A DNA stretch of 38,485 nucleotides from a phage. Location of the stretch: NCBI GenBank assembly GCA_016969615.1, contig GCA_016969615.1_4548.1; one strand, written 5' to 3'. The notes under the pieces are model-generated. The model was not told the DNA's origin. It did no database searches and worked only from the letters and a program-made list of their open reading frames with translations. Positions 717-33,239 of this stretch are shown here, in pieces (position 1 is the first letter of the stretch; each line of letters begins with the position of its first letter). The position numbers were made by a program, and so were the translations under genes.

Positions 717-3700
717 TCCTTGATGTGGATACCTTGCTCCTCAAACGTTCCAAGCAACAGCTTCTGGGTAATTGGGTCGTTCGGAACCAGTTCACGGAAC
801 GTATTATACATCCCGGTCATGTAGTCACGCTCGTTGACACGAGTATCGGCCTTGAGGTAGCCAGCCAAGTTGTAAGCCGAAGCGCCAACGTTAGCAGCAT
901 ATCCGAAAGCTGGAACCTGCTCCAAGAAGTTACCAACAATATTCATCACAGGGTCACTTGTAGCTGCACCATACGCGATGGCACGTTCAGTCTTCTCTGT
1001 AGACGAACGAGGTAGGATAGACGAACGGAGCATCTTAGTGTCCTCGTACCCAGCGATACCACCAAGAATGTTAGCTACCCCAAGTGGTCCACCGAGATGT
1101 GAACTACGGGACAGAGCCGCATAACCAATCATCGTCGGGTCCAGAGCTTGCTTGAGGTAGTCACGGTCACGACCATCCTGCATAGCGTAAGCCTTGATGT
1201 GTGCCTGAGCCATGTAGTAGATACCAGCAAGACCCATAGACATCACAGTGGACAGTGCAGCGTCAATCGCTCTGTTGTTCTTCGTGGCGTTATAGAAGGT
1301 TCGCATGGTTCTCCCATTGATGGACTTGATGACGAAGTTCTTAAACTGAAGGACAGTCTTAGCCAGAGGGCCATAAGCCTTGGCGTCCATGTTACTCAGC
1401 TTGTGTGGACGAAGCAATGTCTCGTCAGCGATGGTGTCGCCCATACGCCACAGGTCCATAGCCCTTGGGTCCTGACTAAACGCCTTCTTATCCTTGATCG
1501 TGTACTTCCCGTCTGGACCACGCGTCACTGACTCACGGATGAGGGACTTAATGCCCTTCCACTGCTCGTCAGAGATACCAGCGGTCTTCAGCCATCGGTC
1601 ATCGAACTTACGCTTACTACCAGTCAGGCTATGCTCCACGATGTCAGATAGGAAGCCTTGACGTCCAGCATCTAACAGGTAGTTGGTCGTACCGTTTAGG
1701 ACTTTAGTGAACGGAGAGCGTACGGCAAGTTCACCAGTGTAATACTTGGCAGTCCCCAGAGCTGTAGCTGCACCACGACCGAGGTCACTGTAAGACCGCA
1801 GACGGTCGATGACATCCTGTTTAGACGGACGGATTGAGTCATCCAATTCTTTACCGAAGAGAACACTATGCAGGTCCTTAATCTCTGAGGCCCCTACCTT
1901 CTTGTTACGGAAGGCTAGGTCACGGAACATCGGGACTCCATGCAGCAGCGCACGAACGTTGCCACGAGCCAGCATGCCTCCAATCTCCGTTAAGTTCTGA
2001 ACACCCATGTAGGCATTCTTAGCGAAGAACGATAGGTCTGTCATTGTGCGCATCACGGTAGCGAAGGCTGCATCATCAGCACCATCACGTCGAGCACGAC
2101 CAGTTAGAATCTTCAAGGTGTCACGTAAGGTAGATACCTCACCTTTCAATTTACCGTCATCCCCAGCCTTGTTCATCATGGTCTCAACCAAGTCCTTCAT
2201 GTCCTTCGTGGTTTTGCCTGTACCAGCCATGATAGCAATATCGCCATTAACTCGACGGTTGTAGGCCGGGACAATCTTGTCCATGTCCCACTCACGCAGG
2301 TTGTTGACACTGAAGGTCTGACCGTTAGGAAGGACGATTGACATATCGCTATCGAACAGGTTACGAGCCTCAAGGAAGCTGTTGTTCTCCAGACCAACCA
2401 GACCGTTGATGTTCTCTTCCATTACGGATGAACGTTCGAACTGCTCGGTGTGAGAGATACCGTAAGCCTTATCGTTGGCGTACTTATCGACCGCAGCAGA
2501 AAGTCCCTCTGGAGTCAACGTAGGGTCAGCCTCTAAGAGTGCCTCGTCCACGCGTTTCTTGACTTCAGGTCGAGACGCATAGCTGGTCAACCATGACTTC
2601 TTGATGGCCTCCTGCAACGCCTCTGGACTCCCAAGCTCCTTGATGTACAGCTCCTTCATCTGTTTGCTATACACATGAGGGACGTAGGTCCCCTTGAATC
2701 GGCTACCCGGAAAGATAGACTGAGCGTCTGGACGACCAAACATAGCTGGGTTCTCCATCATCTCACGCTTGGCGTCAAACTGGTTCTTCAGTAGGTCATA
2801 GACTTTCAGCTCTCCCGGAGTCAGTTCAGCCTTCAGGTTCCCACTACCATCTTCGATAGCCATGGACACACGCTGGTAGATGTCCTGACGGAATGCACCA
2901 GAGTCTCGCCAGAATGCTGTCTGGAAGTACGGGTCCTTTAGTGCCTCAGTAACCGCATCGTCGATGTCGTTGTAGAACCGATGGTCCACAGCACGAAGTC
3001 TCTCGAACACGTCTGACGCAGTTGTCCCGATTTTACCTGAGGCCCCAGACTGCATACCAGTTGGTGAACGCACTAAGTCAGCAGCTACTCCACGAATCTC
3101 AGGGTTCTCAGACCGAAGCAGCTTCAGACCAATCTCGGTAAGTCCGCCAAGGTTCACGCCAGCAGCTGCACGTTCCGGCTCAATCACTTCGTCAAAGACT
3201 TGACGTGTCTTAGGGTTCAGAGGGTTCTCACCAATCAGGATTGAACCATCTTCCAGTCGTACACTACCCGGCTCGTTCGGAACGTCAGCGAACTTAACAC
3301 CTTGATGACTAAAGGTCTGCTCACCTTCCTGAATAGGTAGACGAGACAGGTCCTGACCGTCAACATTACGTGCAGTCTCACGGGCTTCCAGACGTGTGGC
3401 TGGACCAGCAAACTCATTAGTGTTGCGGCCCAAGGCTCTTCCTAGTCCATCAGCGATAGCAGTCATACCACCACCGAATAGAGCGCCACCAAGGATAGCT
3501 TCAGCCACATGAGCATCACCACCAGCCACTGAGGTACGGGCCATCTCAGACACACCAGCCAGTGCTCCGGATTGAGCCGCCACGGTGAACATCTTGTTTA
3601 CCAGTTTACCTCCTTTACCCACCTGTCCAGCAATCGGAACGTATGTCAGAGGGTCAACGCCAGCGCCAATAACACCAGCAGCCAACTGAGCACCAGTCCC

Positions 3701-4600
3701 AGCCTTGGCCTTCTCTTGGTCCAACTTCTGGTTCTCAAGCGCCAAGTTAATAAGCTCGGTCAGGTTCTGAGGAGAGCCACCAGTAATGACTCCGTAATAC
3801 TGAGGCAGAACCCCAGCGTTACGAATCTGGTCCAGCTCCTCACGCGACCACTTATGGTTGTTCCATCTGGTCGGGTTGAACACATCACCAATGACATCCA
3901 GTGAATCCTCAGTCTGGCCAGCTCGGATAGCCACGCCGACCATAGAGTTCTTCACTTCAGCTTCTGCAGCAGCACCGAAACCGAACCACGTAGAGCGATC
4001 CTCTCGCTCCTGCATGGTCTCTCCAGTAGCCTTATAGAACATCTCACCGAACGATTCGTTGGGAGCTTCAGGTGCTTGACCCTCAATGTTCAGACCAGCA
4101 GCGGTCGGAAGGTTCTCACCCAGAGCTACTTTAGGTTTAGCCTTGAGTCCTTCCGTGAGTGCGTCAAATACGTTAGCGCTTACTGGTGGAGTCTTTGGGC
4201 TGATACCGTTGAGTGCTCTTGCTACTCCCTGTTGGTAGACTTCAGGGTCGTACCGGGAGCCTGTCTCATGGAAGCTGATAGCTTGCGCCAGAGAAGACAA
4301 GGTGTCCGGGTTCGAGAGGTCGAGACTCTGGGTAGCTGGGATACCAGTCGCAGCCACCACTGAGTCTATATAAGCCTGAGTGTCGTTCTCATTAGGAGGT
4401 GCCCATCGGTTGATAATCTTCTCGATGGAGTCATAACCTTGGCGACCGTAGGACAGCAGGTTTTTACCTAAAGCTCGGACGCCAGACTCTGGACTATCGA
4501 AGGTGACGAATGCGCCATCATCTCCAGTCATTCCTTCCCATTGGTCCTTACTTACCCGGATGTTACCCGGATTGTTATTGCGAATACCACGAGTCGCCAT
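713..4600 (-). CDS. gp16: Internal virion (core) protein D
   Basis: 1295 aa; long blocks align with T7 gp16 (RSTWFGFGAAAEAE..., TRWNNHKW..., AGVIGAGVDPLTYVP); follows gp15 as in T7. Confidence 0.93.
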   Translation of the reverse strand: MATRGIRNNNPGNIRVSKDQWEGMTGDDGAFVTFDSPESGVRALGKNLLSYGRQGYDSIEKIINRWAPPNENDTQAYIDSVVAATGIPATQSLDLSNPDTLSSLAQAISFHETGSRYDPEVYQQGVARALNGISPKTPPVSANVFDALTEGLKAKPKVALGENLPTAAGLNIEGQAPEAPNESFGEMFYKATGETMQEREDRSTWFGFGAAAEAEVKNSMVGVAIRAGQTEDSLDVIGDVFNPTRWNNHKWSREELDQIRNAGVLPQYYGVITGGSPQNLTELINLALENQKLDQEKAKAGTGAQLAAGVIGAGVDPLTYVPIAGQVGKGGKLVNKMFTVAAQSGALAGVSEMARTSVAGGDAHVAEAILGGALFGGGMTAIADGLGRALGRNTNEFAGPATRLEARETARNVDGQDLSRLPIQEGEQTFSHQGVKFADVPNEPGSVRLEDGSILIGENPLNPKTRQVFDEVIEPERAAAGVNLGGLTEIGLKLLRSENPEIRGVAADLVRSPTGMQSGASGKIGTTASDVFERLRAVDHRFYNDIDDAVTEALKDPYFQTAFWRDSGAFRQDIYQRVSMAIEDGSGNLKAELTPGELKVYDLLKNQFDAKREMMENPAMFGRPDAQSIFPGSRFKGTYVPHVYSKQMKELYIKELGSPEALQEAIKKSWLTSYASRPEVKKRVDEALLEADPTLTPEGLSAAVDKYANDKAYGISHTEQFERSSVMEENINGLVGLENNSFLEARNLFDSDMSIVLPNGQTFSVNNLREWDMDKIVPAYNRRVNGDIAIMAGTGKTTKDMKDLVETMMNKAGDDGKLKGEVSTLRDTLKILTGRARRDGADDAAFATVMRTMTDLSFFAKNAYMGVQNLTEIGGMLARGNVRALLHGVPMFRDLAFRNKKVGASEIKDLHSVLFGKELDDSIRPSKQDVIDRLRSYSDLGRGAATALGTAKYYTGELAVRSPFTKVLNGTTNYLLDAGRQGFLSDIVEHSLTGSKRKFDDRWLKTAGISDEQWKGIKSLIRESVTRGPDGKYTIKDKKAFSQDPRAMDLWRMGDTIADETLLRPHKLSNMDAKAYGPLAKTVLQFKNFVIKSINGRTMRTFYNATKNNRAIDAALSTVMSMGLAGIYYMAQAHIKAYAMQDGRDRDYLKQALDPTMIGYAALSRSSHLGGPLGVANILGGIAGYEDTKMLRSSILPRSSTEKTERAIAYGAATSDPVMNIVGNFLEQVPAFGYAANVGASAYNLAGYLKADTRVNERDYMTGMYNTFRELVPNDPITQKLLLGTFEEQGIHIKD

Positions 4601-30575: not shown

Positions 30576-30836
30576 TCACTTGCATATCAGTGGGTTAGCG
30601 TGAAGATGACTGAAGTCACCATGAGTCGTATGCTTGATGGTTGACCGTTGGTCTATCGCCTTCCAGCCTGAGACCAGAAGTTTACCATCGTCAGTGATTG
30701 GTCGTCCACCATACGCCAGACACATCAGTTCGGACTTATAGCCCTCAGCCCGGAGTCTTGCTTGCAGTACACGGTCGCGCTCCTGCTGTTGACGTGCGGA
30801 GTGTGAAGAGTGGCGGTGAGTGTATGTAGATTTCAT
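30576..30836 (-). CDS. Hypothetical 86-aa early protein
   Basis: ATG overlaps (ATGA) the stop of the restored HNH reading frame; no domain recognised. Confidence 0.55.
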   Translation of the reverse strand: MKSTYTHRHSSHSARQQQERDRVLQARLRAEGYKSELMCLAYGGRPITDDGKLLVSGWKAIDQRSTIKHTTHGDFSHLHANPLICK

Positions 30837-31248
30837 TGTTGGTGCTCCTGTAAGTATTTGATTGCTCTCGCCAGCAGTTCCTGCGAGTCGTTAAATTTTC
30901 CCAGAGTGGTGTTACATGAAAAGCAGAGAAGACCTCGCACCTTCCCCCCGTGGAGTGGCAGTGGTCTACTGCGAGTCGTTGCCCTCTAGTCTCTTCCCCT
31001 GCACATATCGCACACACTCCACCCTGCCTCTCAAGCATCGCATCGTATTCTTCCACAGTAATCCCGTACAGTCTTTTAAGGAAGGATTTGCGCTGCACAT
31101 TCTTGAAGCTCTCTTCATTGCTGCGCTTTTTTCGTGCCAAATACTTGCAGGCTTTGCATTGATTTTCGTAACCATCCTTATGCCCCAGATGTTTATAAAA
31201 ATCAGTCAACGGCTTTAATGTGTGACACTTCTTGCATATCTTTTCCAT
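30833..31248 (-). pseudogene. Endonuclease VII-type HNH endonuclease, reading frame broken at a C6/G6 homopolymer
   Basis: 0-frame gives ...GGVCAICAGEETRGQRLAVDHCHSTGG then off-motif residues; the -1 frame after the six-C run at 30944..30949 reads KVRGLLCFSCNTTLGKF... (canonical Endo VII motif) and ends TGA overlapping the next ATG. Confidence 0.75.
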
Positions 31249-31445
31249 CACAGCTTACTTCCCAAAGTTGCTATATCCCAGACGTTCGCGAGGTTGCGCA
31301 TGAATCGTCCGTTAGGTTGACGTACAGTCCAGCGGCCCGGACGTACATAGTTGAATTTGTAGACTTTACGCGCCTTGTTAATGTCTCTCATCAGCACGTA
31401 GGCGATAAGTCCATAGCCTATGACTATCAATAGTGTTATACTCAT
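31248..31445 (-). CDS. Small membrane protein (65 aa)
   Basis: N-terminal hydrophobic helix MSITLLIVIGYGLIAYVLM; stop overlaps the HNH start; ATG overlaps the stop of an upstream 29-aa ORF. Confidence 0.5.
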   Translation of the reverse strand: MSITLLIVIGYGLIAYVLMRDINKARKVYKFNYVRPGRWTVRQPNGRFMRNLANVWDIATLGSKL

Positions 31446-31531: not shown

Positions 31532-31768
31532 AGTTAACTCCTATTAATGCAAGTGGTAATCTTTGAGGCCACCTATCAGTCGATGACCTCTCGTTTATCA
31601 CTCAGTACCTGCCAGTAAGTTACACCTCAGCGTGCAAACTGTCGTGCATATGTTTTCGTACTTCATAGACCACTTTCAGGTGACGCATAGCCACATCGTG
31701 GTTTAACTGCCCGGTCTTGACCATAAGCCGGGCGTAGGTGACGTGGTGCTGGCATAGTCCATAAGTTA

Positions 31769-32107
31769 TCAGCACTCGCAGTCCTCCTCTTCAGCCTCGA
31801 ACCATACCACATCACGGCTATTGGACACATCGTTATACAGTGCCTCATAGATGCGAGCTTGTAGTATACGCGTTACGTCCTTGGTATCAGGCATCATACC
31901 AGAGTCTTCAAACTCGTGGTCAATACCATCAGCAGCCATCACCGTGAAAATCTCGTGGTAATAGTGCGGAACCATATTGTCTACGACTTCATGCAGCGCA
32001 TCGCTGTAGTCATCACCTTCAGCTATTTCGTCGTACTGAATGCGCTCGTTAAATGCTTTAACAGTTGCAGCCAGCAGGTAATAGTATGCGTTAGCGTTAC
32101 GTTCCAT
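31769..32107 (-). CDS. ocr: Ocr-like anti-restriction protein (DNA mimic)
   Basis: 112 aa, acidic; [46 protein letters not shown] is near-identical to the T7 gp0.3 core; acidic C-terminus. Confidence 0.9.
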
Positions 32108-32187
32108 AATTATATCCTCGTTTGTTTGTGTATGTTGTGACTATCATTCAGGCCGCTATGAGTCTAACGACCTGTAGTTAATCACTC

Positions 32188-32433
32188 TCAGTTAGCGAAA
32201 TAAGGAGCTGAGGCGCTCGCTGTAGGACTCACGGTTATCTGTGAGTCTATCAAGTAGGTCTCGTTGTCTATACGCACAGTATCTACGCTGTAGTTGCTGA
32301 ACGGCTTGCTTGAGACCTTGCGCACTACCACACGGTGACGCGCTCCTGTCATCTCTTTAAGCTGAATCCACGCATAACCTTTAGTGTTCACGAATACTTC
32401 ATTGTGATTAGTGATTGTGCTTAAGTGTTTCAT
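32188..32433 (-). CDS. Hypothetical early protein, first gene after the early promoters and upstream of ocr
   Basis: 81 aa from ATG 32433 (RBS AAAGGA, 8 nt); track ORF starts 3 codons earlier at 32442 with no usable spacing; no domain recognised. Confidence 0.6.
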   Translation of the reverse strand: MKHLSTITNHNEVFVNTKGYAWIQLKEMTGARHRVVVRKVSSKPFSNYSVDTVRIDNETYLIDSQITVSPTASASAPYFAN

Positions 32434-32465
32434 AGTGTCCATCCTTTAAGTTAGTGGCTATCAGT

Positions 32466-32496
32466 CAGGGCCTTCAGATGTAGACTCAAGGCCCTG
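32466..32496 (-). promoter_or_regulatory. Early-leader hairpin (R0.3-like RNase III site candidate)
   Basis: perfect 9-bp inverted repeat cagggcctt / aaggccctg with 13-nt loop; 3-7 nt downstream of it lies CTCTTTAACAATCTGG, which matches the T7 0.3 leader as I recall it. Confidence 0.5.
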
Positions 32497-32618
32497 TAGT
32501 TAGTCGCTATCGGCGCACATTAAGAGTTTATCCAGATTGTTAAAGAGCATTCGCATTGGCTGTCGTCGCCGTGCTATCCCGTTTCAGTGTTGGGACTCAC
32601 TAATCTTGCTTGCCGTAT

Positions 32619-32647
32619 AAGTTACTACAGTCAAACCAGCTTGTCAA
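32619..32647 (-). promoter_or_regulatory. Host sigma70-type early promoter candidate (A3-like)
   Basis: minus TTGACA, 17 bp, TAACTT. Confidence 0.4.
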
Positions 32648-32686
32648 TCACTTTCTTAACTCGCTTGCTGTCCTGCTTGGTGAATC

Positions 32687-32715
32687 ATACTACGTTAAGT
32701 CTTACATCTTGTCAA
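32687..32715 (-). promoter_or_regulatory. Host sigma70-type early promoter (A2-like)
   Basis: minus TTGACA, 17 bp, TAGTAT; upstream TAAGTAGACAGCCTGATAAGTC matches the T7 A2 region as I recall it. Confidence 0.6.
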
Positions 32716-32827
32716 CTACTTTCTGTCATCTGCCTGTTGTTCGTATGACTTATCAGGCTGTCTACTTAACCTGGATGACCCGGCGTCTCCACTATCCGGT
32801 TGTTGCCGTGTCGTGTTGACGGAAGCT

Positions 32828-32856
32828 ATTAAGCCACAATCTAGACCCATAGTCAA
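32828..32856 (-). promoter_or_regulatory. Host sigma70-type early promoter candidate (A1-like)
   Basis: minus TTGACT, 17 bp, CTTAAT with AT-rich upstream stretch; layout resembles T7 A1. Confidence 0.45.
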
Positions 32857-32940
32857 TAGGTAATTTGAAATAATATTGATTGAGCTATCGTCGGCCCCAT
32901 GGTGTAAGAGGATATAGTCTTTGATTAACATGTCTTAGAC

Positions 32941-33064: not shown

Positions 33065-33239
33065 ACAGATAGAGACTCAGAGACAGACCGATAGTCCCAA
33101 CCTATCGTCCCGACCTCCAGCCATAGCCTAGACCTATCGTCTTGACCATCGGCCCAACCTTATGATATACTGGGGTAGGGCCTTTGGTCTGGACTGAAAG
33201 AGGGCCTATGGGGAGACTTGAGGTTCTTGAACTGTGAGA
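33065..33239 (-). repeat. Candidate terminal-repeat region / physical genome left end (single junction copy)
   Basis: minus strand from 33239 reads TCTCACAGT...CCCCATAGG...GTCTCTGAGTCTCTATCTGT, resembling the start and end of the T7 terminal repeat as recalled; extent is a guess. Confidence 0.3.

Follow-up and report, generated by a model that had tools for sequence, protein, structure and literature searches.

Gene 0.2 is the first gene behind the host-RNA-polymerase promoters at the genome end of a K1F-like phage. It is almost certainly a real, early, accessory gene cassette. As read from the sequence, the cassette is optional, comprises the gene with its ribosome-binding site and a single hairpin, and ends exactly in repeated hairpin sequence. 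The initial annotation considered the gene a candidate anti-restriction or anti-defence factor because of its leading position. This hypothesis is reasonable and is somewhat strengthened by the analysis; it is plausible, with a likelihood somewhat under an even chance.

The window, which is the whole stretch of DNA analysed (38,485 nucleotides), is read as an almost complete Kayfunavirus (K1F-like) genome that is circularly permuted and reverse-complemented. This reading follows from the left-end region, which has 90–93% nucleotide identity to K1F-like phages, from the RNA polymerase gene, which matches Kayfunavirus genomes at 90–95%, and from the strand of the open reading frames (ORFs), as the terminase, the RNA polymerase and the other large ORFs of the window are on the minus strand. 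The physical left end is placed near 33239 by BLAST against K1F, and the start of gene 0.2 is approximately 800 nt away. The initial annotation described leader elements followed by an 81-aa ORF and then by Ocr. This order is congruent with the features found, which are A-type promoters and an R0.3-like site, the 81-aa ORF, and an Ocr that matches PF08684. The picture is corrected in one respect, as gene 0.2 lies on the minus strand of the permuted genome, and gains a further RNase III-like hairpin that separates gene 0.2 from ocr. The features of the locus are as follows.

32828–32856, minus strand: sigma-70 promoter-like site 1 (A1-like), TTGACT-17-CTTAAT, read from the sequence and aligned with the T7 A1 region
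32716–32931, minus strand: ORF equivalent to K1F 'gp0.1', 71 aa, rejected as a gene
32687–32715, minus strand: sigma-70 promoter-like site 2 (A2-like), TTGACA-17-TAGTAT, from a consensus scan with 10 of 12 matches
32619–32647, minus strand: sigma-70 promoter-like site 3 (A3-like), TTGACA-17-TAACTT, read from the sequence
32445–32512, minus strand: putative RNase III-type hairpin 1 (R0.3 homologue), stem arms 32496–32485 and 32477–32466, inverted repeat I1
32442–32447, minus strand: Shine-Dalgarno sequence AAAGGA, 8 nt ahead of the ATG at 32433
32188–32433, minus strand: gene 0.2, an 81-aa basic protein, ATG at 32433 and TGA at 32190–32188
32137–32185, minus strand: putative RNase III-type hairpin 2, a copy of hairpin 1 that has diverged, in the gap from gene 0.2 to ocr
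31769–32107, minus strand: ocr (gene 0.3), a 112-aa acidic DNA mimic (PF08684, E = 2.9e-32; phrog_2568, E = 8e-52)

The initial annotation placed an 81-aa gene at 32188–32433. Both the coordinates and the length are right, and the start codon, the stop codon and the Shine-Dalgarno sequence are placed accordingly. An 84-aa reading from the in-frame ATG at 32442 is rejected. That ATG falls within the Shine-Dalgarno sequence itself, and the 81-aa homologues of the Kayfunavirus type begin with MK(H/K)LS; the 81-aa reading is therefore correct. The opposite strand of gene 0.2 contains no competing ORF of 30 aa or more. When gene 0.2 is compared with its myovirus homologues, third codon positions account for 50 of the 84 nucleotide differences, dS is saturated and dN is approximately 0.2. 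By this codon pattern, the protein is under strong purifying selection. The gene was also described as unknown; it is uncharacterised but not undiscovered, since public records annotate it as K1F gene 0.2 and it belongs to PHROG 10124.

The K1F 'gp0.1' equivalent was considered as the real first gene and is rejected. Its start lies ahead of promoter 1, and it overlaps both that site and promoter 2. Its frame contains an in-frame TAA in PE3-1 in the five-way alignment, and it is probably not a gene.

The three promoter-like sites have consensus or near-consensus -35 hexamers and line up with the T7 A-promoter region in the five-way alignment. They are putative promoters. Site 3 lies within a 68-nt duplication (direct repeat D3) that K1F, PE3-1 and CY1 do not have. 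Hairpin 1 aligns column for column with the T7 R0.3 region in the five-way alignment. Its predicted fold (-23.1 kcal/mol, z = -3.26) is more stable than those of all 200 shuffled sequences, and the predicted fold of hairpin 2 (-22.6 kcal/mol, z = -3.88) is likewise more stable than those of shuffled sequences. Among nine hairpin copies from four phages, compensatory changes keep pairing at 5 of 10 consensus pairs, which supports a conserved RNA structure. No Rfam model matches either hairpin. Hairpins 1 and 2 are candidate RNase III sites that appear homologous to T7 R0.3.

The extent of the cassette is defined by close relatives of the window. Three Kayfunaviruses, PE3-1, CY1 and Bas105, do not contain gene 0.2; in these genomes hairpin 1 is followed directly by the ribosome-binding site of ocr. 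Relative to these three, the window and K1F contain an insertion made up of the gene 0.2 ribosome-binding site, the gene and the second hairpin. The indel junctions fall in the repeat CTGAcTGATAGyCAC(T)AAC, on the 3' side of the hairpin in PE3-1, CY1 and Bas105. The core of this repeat, CTGAcTGATAGyCAC, has only two exact matches in the window, at 32468–32454 and 32151–32137, and these bracket gene 0.2. The 5' side of the hairpin is likewise covered by a 24-nt direct repeat (D2), which pairs 32511–32488 with 32189–32166. Vec13 contains one more cassette (gp01, 92 aa, phrog_9817) ahead of gene 0.2, together with a third copy of the hairpin. In the SH4-type Citrobacter Kayfunaviruses, unrelated genes occupy the slot between the leader and ocr (table in PMC4925675). 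The gains and losses of cassettes and the presence of other genes in Citrobacter phages indicate that this slot is a small hyperplastic region. Judged from the junctions only, homologous recombination between hairpin copies would be the simplest mechanism for cassette exchange.

Gene 0.2 is far less diverged than its flanks. Between the window and each of K1F, Vec13, vB_EcoP_F and ST31, gene 0.2 has 96–98% nucleotide identity. In the same four comparisons the adjacent intergenic sequence is 81–91% identical, ocr is 86–90% identical, the leader is 82–84% identical where alignable, and the RNA polymerase gene is 92% identical. The RNA polymerase genes of the window and K1F differ with a dS of 0.36, and their copies of gene 0.2 with a dS of only 0.02. 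Constraint at the nucleotide level is rejected as the cause of the low dS, because third positions are saturated against the myovirus homologues. The difference in divergence instead suggests that the cassette has spread recently, and recent exchange among Kayfunaviruses appears to be the better reading.

Homologues of gene 0.2 are also present in phages that are not Kayfunaviruses. Proteins 79–80% identical to gp0.2 are encoded in myovirus contigs of approximately 150 kb (Phapecoctavirus). There the homologue comes with a TTGACA-16-TAATAT promoter of its own together with a stem-loop, a unit that recurs before the next small gene. A search for related loci with a narrow family alignment recovers seven loci. 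In the Ermolevavirus phiKT the homologue is the second early ORF, and in the Przondovirus it is directly ahead of ocr. By this distribution, gene 0.2 has moved between unrelated phage families, and homologues are kept in at least four phage lineages.

Six distant homologues (26–40% identity) are found in T3/T7-like contigs, in SP6/K1E-like contigs and in the Lelliottia phage phD2B. In all six contexts a long non-coding genome end leads into the homologue, with no substantial ORF before it. Among the other T7/SP6-like phages examined, the homologue leads the early region in all but one, which is phiKT. An ORF of approximately 70 aa (phrog_6403), translationally coupled or closely abutting, comes next in four of the six distant contexts, and a gene for SAM lyase follows soon after the homologue in three. 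In the Kayfunavirus and the Przondovirus, ocr is the gene that follows. Searches of 5,426 complete E. coli genomes and of 72,556 plasmids gave no match to gene 0.2, and the family was found only in virulent phages.

The distribution of gp0.2 by host was estimated from approximately 220 records with an RNA polymerase at the Kayfunavirus level and approximately 71 records with gp0.2 at 90% identity or higher. By record name, carriers make up approximately 70 of 93 Escherichia records, 1 of 60 Salmonella records and none of 12 Citrobacter records; these counts are indicative, as they come from two separate searches, ignore phylogeny and count near-identical isolates repeatedly. Of the 17 records named 'Kayfunavirus', about 9 appear to carry the gene.

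The initial annotation proposed homology and structure searches, and these return PHROG 10124 ('unknown function') and no relative in Pfam, NCBIfam, PADLOC or the PDB. The match to the PHROG profile (E = 1.6e-40) places residues 1–81 on positions 1–77 of 77. The window protein shares 100% identity with its counterpart in Kayfunavirus BDX03P1, and 95% with K1F gp0.2 (CAJ29341.1) across all 81 residues. A homologue is encoded in 119 phage records, approximately 70 of which are 93–100% identical to it. The family comprises 43 protein clusters at 69% identity or higher. A profile search of 1.84 billion representative proteins gives only 17 matches at E < 1e-3, most of them 65–90 aa long. These are small phage-type proteins, except for two long repetitive proteins, matched over stretches of 20–35 residues, and two fusions of 189 aa. 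In the 189-aa variant, the domain fused to that of gp0.2 occurs on its own as the first gene of Yersinia phage vB_YpEc11 and is likewise uncharacterised. Nearly every aligned homologue is full length.

The family shares the core motif RK(V)xS(K)xFSN(W/Y)SVDTVRI....YL(I)DSQ, which is present in the window protein. None of the three alignments shows variation at R38 or Y60, and S42, F45, S46, N47, L61, I62 and D63 are invariant or nearly so. The C-terminal tail (...SAPYFAN) contains the invariant A76 and P77 and the nearly invariant Y78, F79 and N81 in the Kayfunavirus-type alignment. The peptide APYF(A/V)N is conserved only in the Kayfunavirus-type branch and in a few distant members. Two AlphaFold2 (AF2) models (pLDDT 74 and 76) are mostly beta, with approximately six strands, and give the tail low confidence (pLDDT 35–56). 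The invariant polar and aromatic residues and the conserved, low-confidence tail suggest, on these models, a binding protein with a docking peptide. By direct reading, the sequence of gp0.2 contains no predicted membrane segment or signal.

The protein is basic, with a pI of 9.45 and a net charge of +3, and the family median pI is 9.5, with 65 of 70 members above pI 8. An Ocr-like DNA mimic is excluded on this basis. Neither PF08684 (Ocr) nor PF23780 (SAM lyase) matches gp0.2 or any of 35 aligned family members, and scans of the same proteins against Pfam, NCBIfam and PADLOC give no consistent family. Single weak matches, such as IPI_T4 (E = 0.07) in one member, are considered noise. A profile search of the PDB with the gp0.2 family returns nothing. 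Structure matches in BFVD are only to uncharacterised proteins of Lelliottia, Acinetobacter and Proteus podoviruses, and no fold match is convincing, as all are below significance with models of pLDDT 74–76. Because the models are only moderate, the lack of a fold match is weak evidence for a new fold. No similarity in sequence or structure to a characterised anti-defence inhibitor was found, and no paper linking gp0.2 with K1F was found in the literature. The supplements of two screens of phage accessory genes (Silas et al.) do not contain the gp0.2 motif, and no report of inhibition was found in the literature.

The closest known counterpart is K1F gene 0.2 (PHROG 10124), which has the same position, at K1F nt 785–1030 between the early promoters and gene 0.3. 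The window gene differs from it in nothing of substance, and every tested feature of membership was found in it. Gene 0.2 also resembles T7 ocr (gene 0.3) in being the first cistron behind A promoters and an RNase III site. It occupies the place of T7 gene 0.3 and probably shares its mode of expression. By analogy with Ocr, gp0.2 would be a small protein of the first minutes with an accessory, host-directed role. The two proteins have no sequence or fold relationship. Ocr is very acidic (pI 4.1 and net charge -20 in the window), whereas gp0.2 is basic and predicted to be mostly beta. Unlike T7, the window contains Ocr as well, as the second gene. The SAM lyase of T3 and phiYeO3-12 (PF23780) fills an equivalent first anti-restriction slot and follows a gp0.2 homologue in three SP6-like contexts, but it is an enzyme of approximately 140–150 aa and its profile does not match gp0.2. 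The T7 class I takeover proteins gp0.4 and gp0.7 belong to the same early transcription unit, and gp0.4 is similar in size. They have no homology to gp0.2 in any library, and gp0.2 differs from them in being optional and host-linked.

The arrangement is also similar to that of promoter-early stem-loops (PeSLs), which are mobile regulatory cassettes of T4-type phages (PMC2839356, PMC4122927). In both systems, a regulatory motif recurs between small accessory ORFs and marks the ends of indels that distinguish close relatives. The Phapecoctavirus homologue itself sits between repeated promoter and stem-loop units. The T7-like repeat differs from a PeSL in that it is an RNase III-type hairpin without promoter hexamers, and it is the junctions only that point to recombination.

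In T7, the left end of approximately 850 bp enters the cell first, the A promoters are used by host RNA polymerase, and RNase III cleavage separates the early cistrons. By analogy, the end of the genome that carries gene 0.2 would be the first to enter the cell. The two bracketing hairpins would allow the gene 0.2 message to be cut out as a separate small early mRNA, similar to the T7 0.3 mRNA, and gp0.2 would be translated from this RNA of approximately 320 nt before Ocr is made. When hairpin copies recombine, cassettes would be gained or lost in the slot that separates the leader from ocr. The product is modelled as a small, basic, beta-rich protein with predicted invariant surface residues at R38, S42, F45-S46-N47 and Y60-L61-I62-D63. 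It would bind and block a host factor that varies between hosts, act stoichiometrically and do so in the first minutes of infection. The most probable target would be an anti-phage immunity protein beyond the reach of Ocr.

A counter-defence role of this kind, in which gp0.2 stoichiometrically inhibits a host-variable factor and most probably an immune protein, has circumstantial evidence behind it and may be correct, at nearly even likelihood. It is consistent with a cassette that is optional among close relatives, shows signs of recent horizontal spread and has moved between unrelated phage families. It is also consistent with a place at or close to the head of the early region in other T7/SP6-like phages, with the restriction to virulent phages and with the host-linked distribution between Escherichia and Salmonella records. 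Ocr or SAM lyase often adjoins the gene; as T7-like early regions hold few genes, this adjacency is weak evidence. Against a counter-defence role, several T7 early proteins from the same region act on housekeeping functions and not on immunity, and gp0.2 is basic, as are nucleic-acid binders.

The first of these objections corresponds to a different reading, in which gp0.2 is a host-takeover factor that inhibits a housekeeping process (division, transcription, RNA decay or the nucleoid) and raises phage yield. T7 gp0.4, gp0.7, gp2 and gp5.5 inhibit host housekeeping processes. The position and timing of gene 0.2 are those of T7 class I genes, and gp0.2 is small and basic. In Kayfunaviruses the interval from ocr to the RNA polymerase gene contains no kinase or shut-off gene of gp0.7 size, which leaves room for a different early factor in takeover. 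This reading is not congruent with PE3-1, CY1 and Bas105, which manage without gene 0.2, or with the near absence of the gene from Salmonella-infecting Kayfunaviruses, as housekeeping targets are nearly identical in E. coli and Salmonella. The pattern of recent spread is also better suited to a conditionally useful gene. A takeover role is unlikely overall, at roughly one chance in five.

The basic charge corresponds to a further reading, in which gp0.2 binds the entering DNA end or early RNA and either protects against nucleases or modulates RNase III processing or translation. The consistency of the charge across the family and the structured RNA elements that flank the gene are the observations in its favour. 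However, every fold match to gp0.2 is below significance, and the homologues occur in differing RNA contexts, which include the promoter and stem-loop cassettes of myoviruses and SP6-like genomes. The conserved, low-confidence tail also suggests a protein partner. Nucleic-acid binding as the function is rather improbable, a little more so than host takeover.

It is more doubtful still that early gp0.2 excludes or cripples co-infecting or resident phages (superinfection exclusion). An accessory and horizontally mobile distribution among virulent phages with common hosts, and the predicted immediate expression, would suit such competition. Many exclusion proteins act at the envelope, but gp0.2 has neither a predicted membrane segment nor a signal. 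The members share no common PADLOC family, and their neighbours are anti-restriction genes and not defence genes. A selfish or decaying passenger that travels with the hairpin repeat and has no useful function would account for a gene that is dispensable in several relatives and a family without known function, but it is very improbable given the strong conservation of the protein across saturated synonymous divergence, its retention in several lineages, an intact Shine-Dalgarno sequence and start, and homologues that are almost all full length.

The counter-defence reading can be extended to a broader one. Here gp0.2 would found a structurally new, immediate-early counter-defence family that is made before Ocr, from the DNA that enters first. 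Its beta core and APYF peptide would bind and neutralise an immune system of E. coli and Klebsiella that either lies outside the range of Ocr or senses Ocr or SAM lyase. The hairpins would be recombination joints, and the slot between the leader and ocr would be an exchangeable anti-defence array, the T7-group counterpart of the T4 PeSLs. Taken jointly, these proposals are speculative and have perhaps a one-in-three prospect at best.

A small early gene without a known role is no surprise to a specialist in T7-like phages, and gene 0.2 itself is already catalogued. What is new is the cassette structure, the missing and extra copies, the signal of recent spread, the distant leading homologues and the basic character of the family. 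The hairpin-bounded cassette, the signal of recent spread and the leading position conserved across subfamilies make gene 0.2 a better-than-average candidate. If gp0.2 has no effect on immunity, it is another small early ORF and the finding is ordinary. Naturally matched phages make testing easy, as Bas105, PE3-1 and CY1 do not have the 246-bp gene in its cassette and K1F, LM33_P1 and the K-12-infecting vB_EcoP_LNA3 and LNA5 do. The cassette architecture also gives a general search route, which is to look for accessory early genes between repeated RNase III-type hairpins of T7-like genomes. Capsulated and O-antigen-bearing E. coli are therapeutic targets for which K1F-like phages are widely isolated. 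If the counter-defence role is true, gp0.2 would represent a new anti-defence protein family without a detectable relative of known fold, and it could account for part of the host-range differences between otherwise near-identical phages.

The early promoter region differs in promoter number between the window phage and related Kayfunaviruses. In the alignment, three sigma-70 early promoters are present in the window phage, as in T7, versus two in K1F, PE3-1 and CY1. This difference corresponds to a 68-nt duplication that carries a second TTGACA box (direct repeat D3). The early-region features of the window are:

32619-32724 (-), sigma-70 early promoter duplication, direct repeat D3
31769-32107 (-), ocr, compared with K1F ocr at 1114-1623
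31620-31775 (-), small early ORF downstream of ocr, phrog_5058
31248-31445 (-), small early ORF downstream of ocr, phrog_2385
30745-31251 and 30833-30940 (-), HNH/endonuclease VII-type gene, Pfam match

Ocr is 112 aa long in the window phage and PE3-1 and 169 aa in K1F, where an additional acidic C-terminal domain precedes the common EEDCE end. The PHROGs matched by the two small ORFs after ocr are of unknown function, and among the window ORFs and their PHROG matches, the stretch from ocr to the RNA polymerase gene contains no gp0.7-type kinase. The HNH/endonuclease VII-type gene looks frameshifted: the Pfam match is limited to residues 58-103 of the 168-aa ORF, and the expected C-terminal part (RGLLCFSCNTTLGKF...) is found in a different frame. 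For its first ~400 nt, the phage collection offers no close relative at the nucleotide level. The gene has the appearance of a private insertion of a homing endonuclease, either in decay or mis-assembled.

Additional genes and repeats accompany gene 0.2 and its homologues in other phages:

Vec13 (NC_048023.1) 930-1208, extra 92-aa early gene ahead of gene 0.2, phrog_9817
phage nepoznato 3900-4300, repeated promoter and stem-loop units among small early genes
phiKT 3499-3993, ORF upstream of the gp0.2 homologue, phrog_2226
L004 5246-5455, L005 5222-5431 and L006 1325-1543, ~70-aa ORFs after the gp0.2 homologue, phrog_6403
L002 5001-5570 (P0049), 189-aa gp0.2-domain fusion
vB_YpEc11 1051-1398, its stand-alone partner

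The extra gene of Vec13, of unknown function, is followed by its own hairpin copy, which results in a three-hairpin, two-cassette array before ocr. In the 151-kb Phapecoctavirus nepoznato, the gp0.2 homologue lies among small early genes separated by repeats of a near-consensus sigma-70 promoter and then a GC-rich stem-loop (CACGTAGGGCGGC...GCCGCC). This layout is reminiscent of the T4 PeSLs. The phiKT ORF matches phrog_2226 ('SAM-dependent methyltransferase', E = 3.5e-29), and its public annotation as 'tail tape measure protein' looks like a mis-annotation.

In the SP6-like contexts (contigs L004, L005 and L006), the phrog_6403 ORF (MYxHEIYTES...EEVIT) overlaps the preceding gp0.2 homologue and is probably translationally coupled to it. 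The two may form a two-gene module that is absent from Kayfunaviruses. In the 189-aa protein of contig L002, the gp0.2 domain is joined to a second domain that stands alone elsewhere as YpEc11_01, the first early gene of Helsettvirus vB_YpEc11. This ORF is a merger of two 'first-gene' cassettes.
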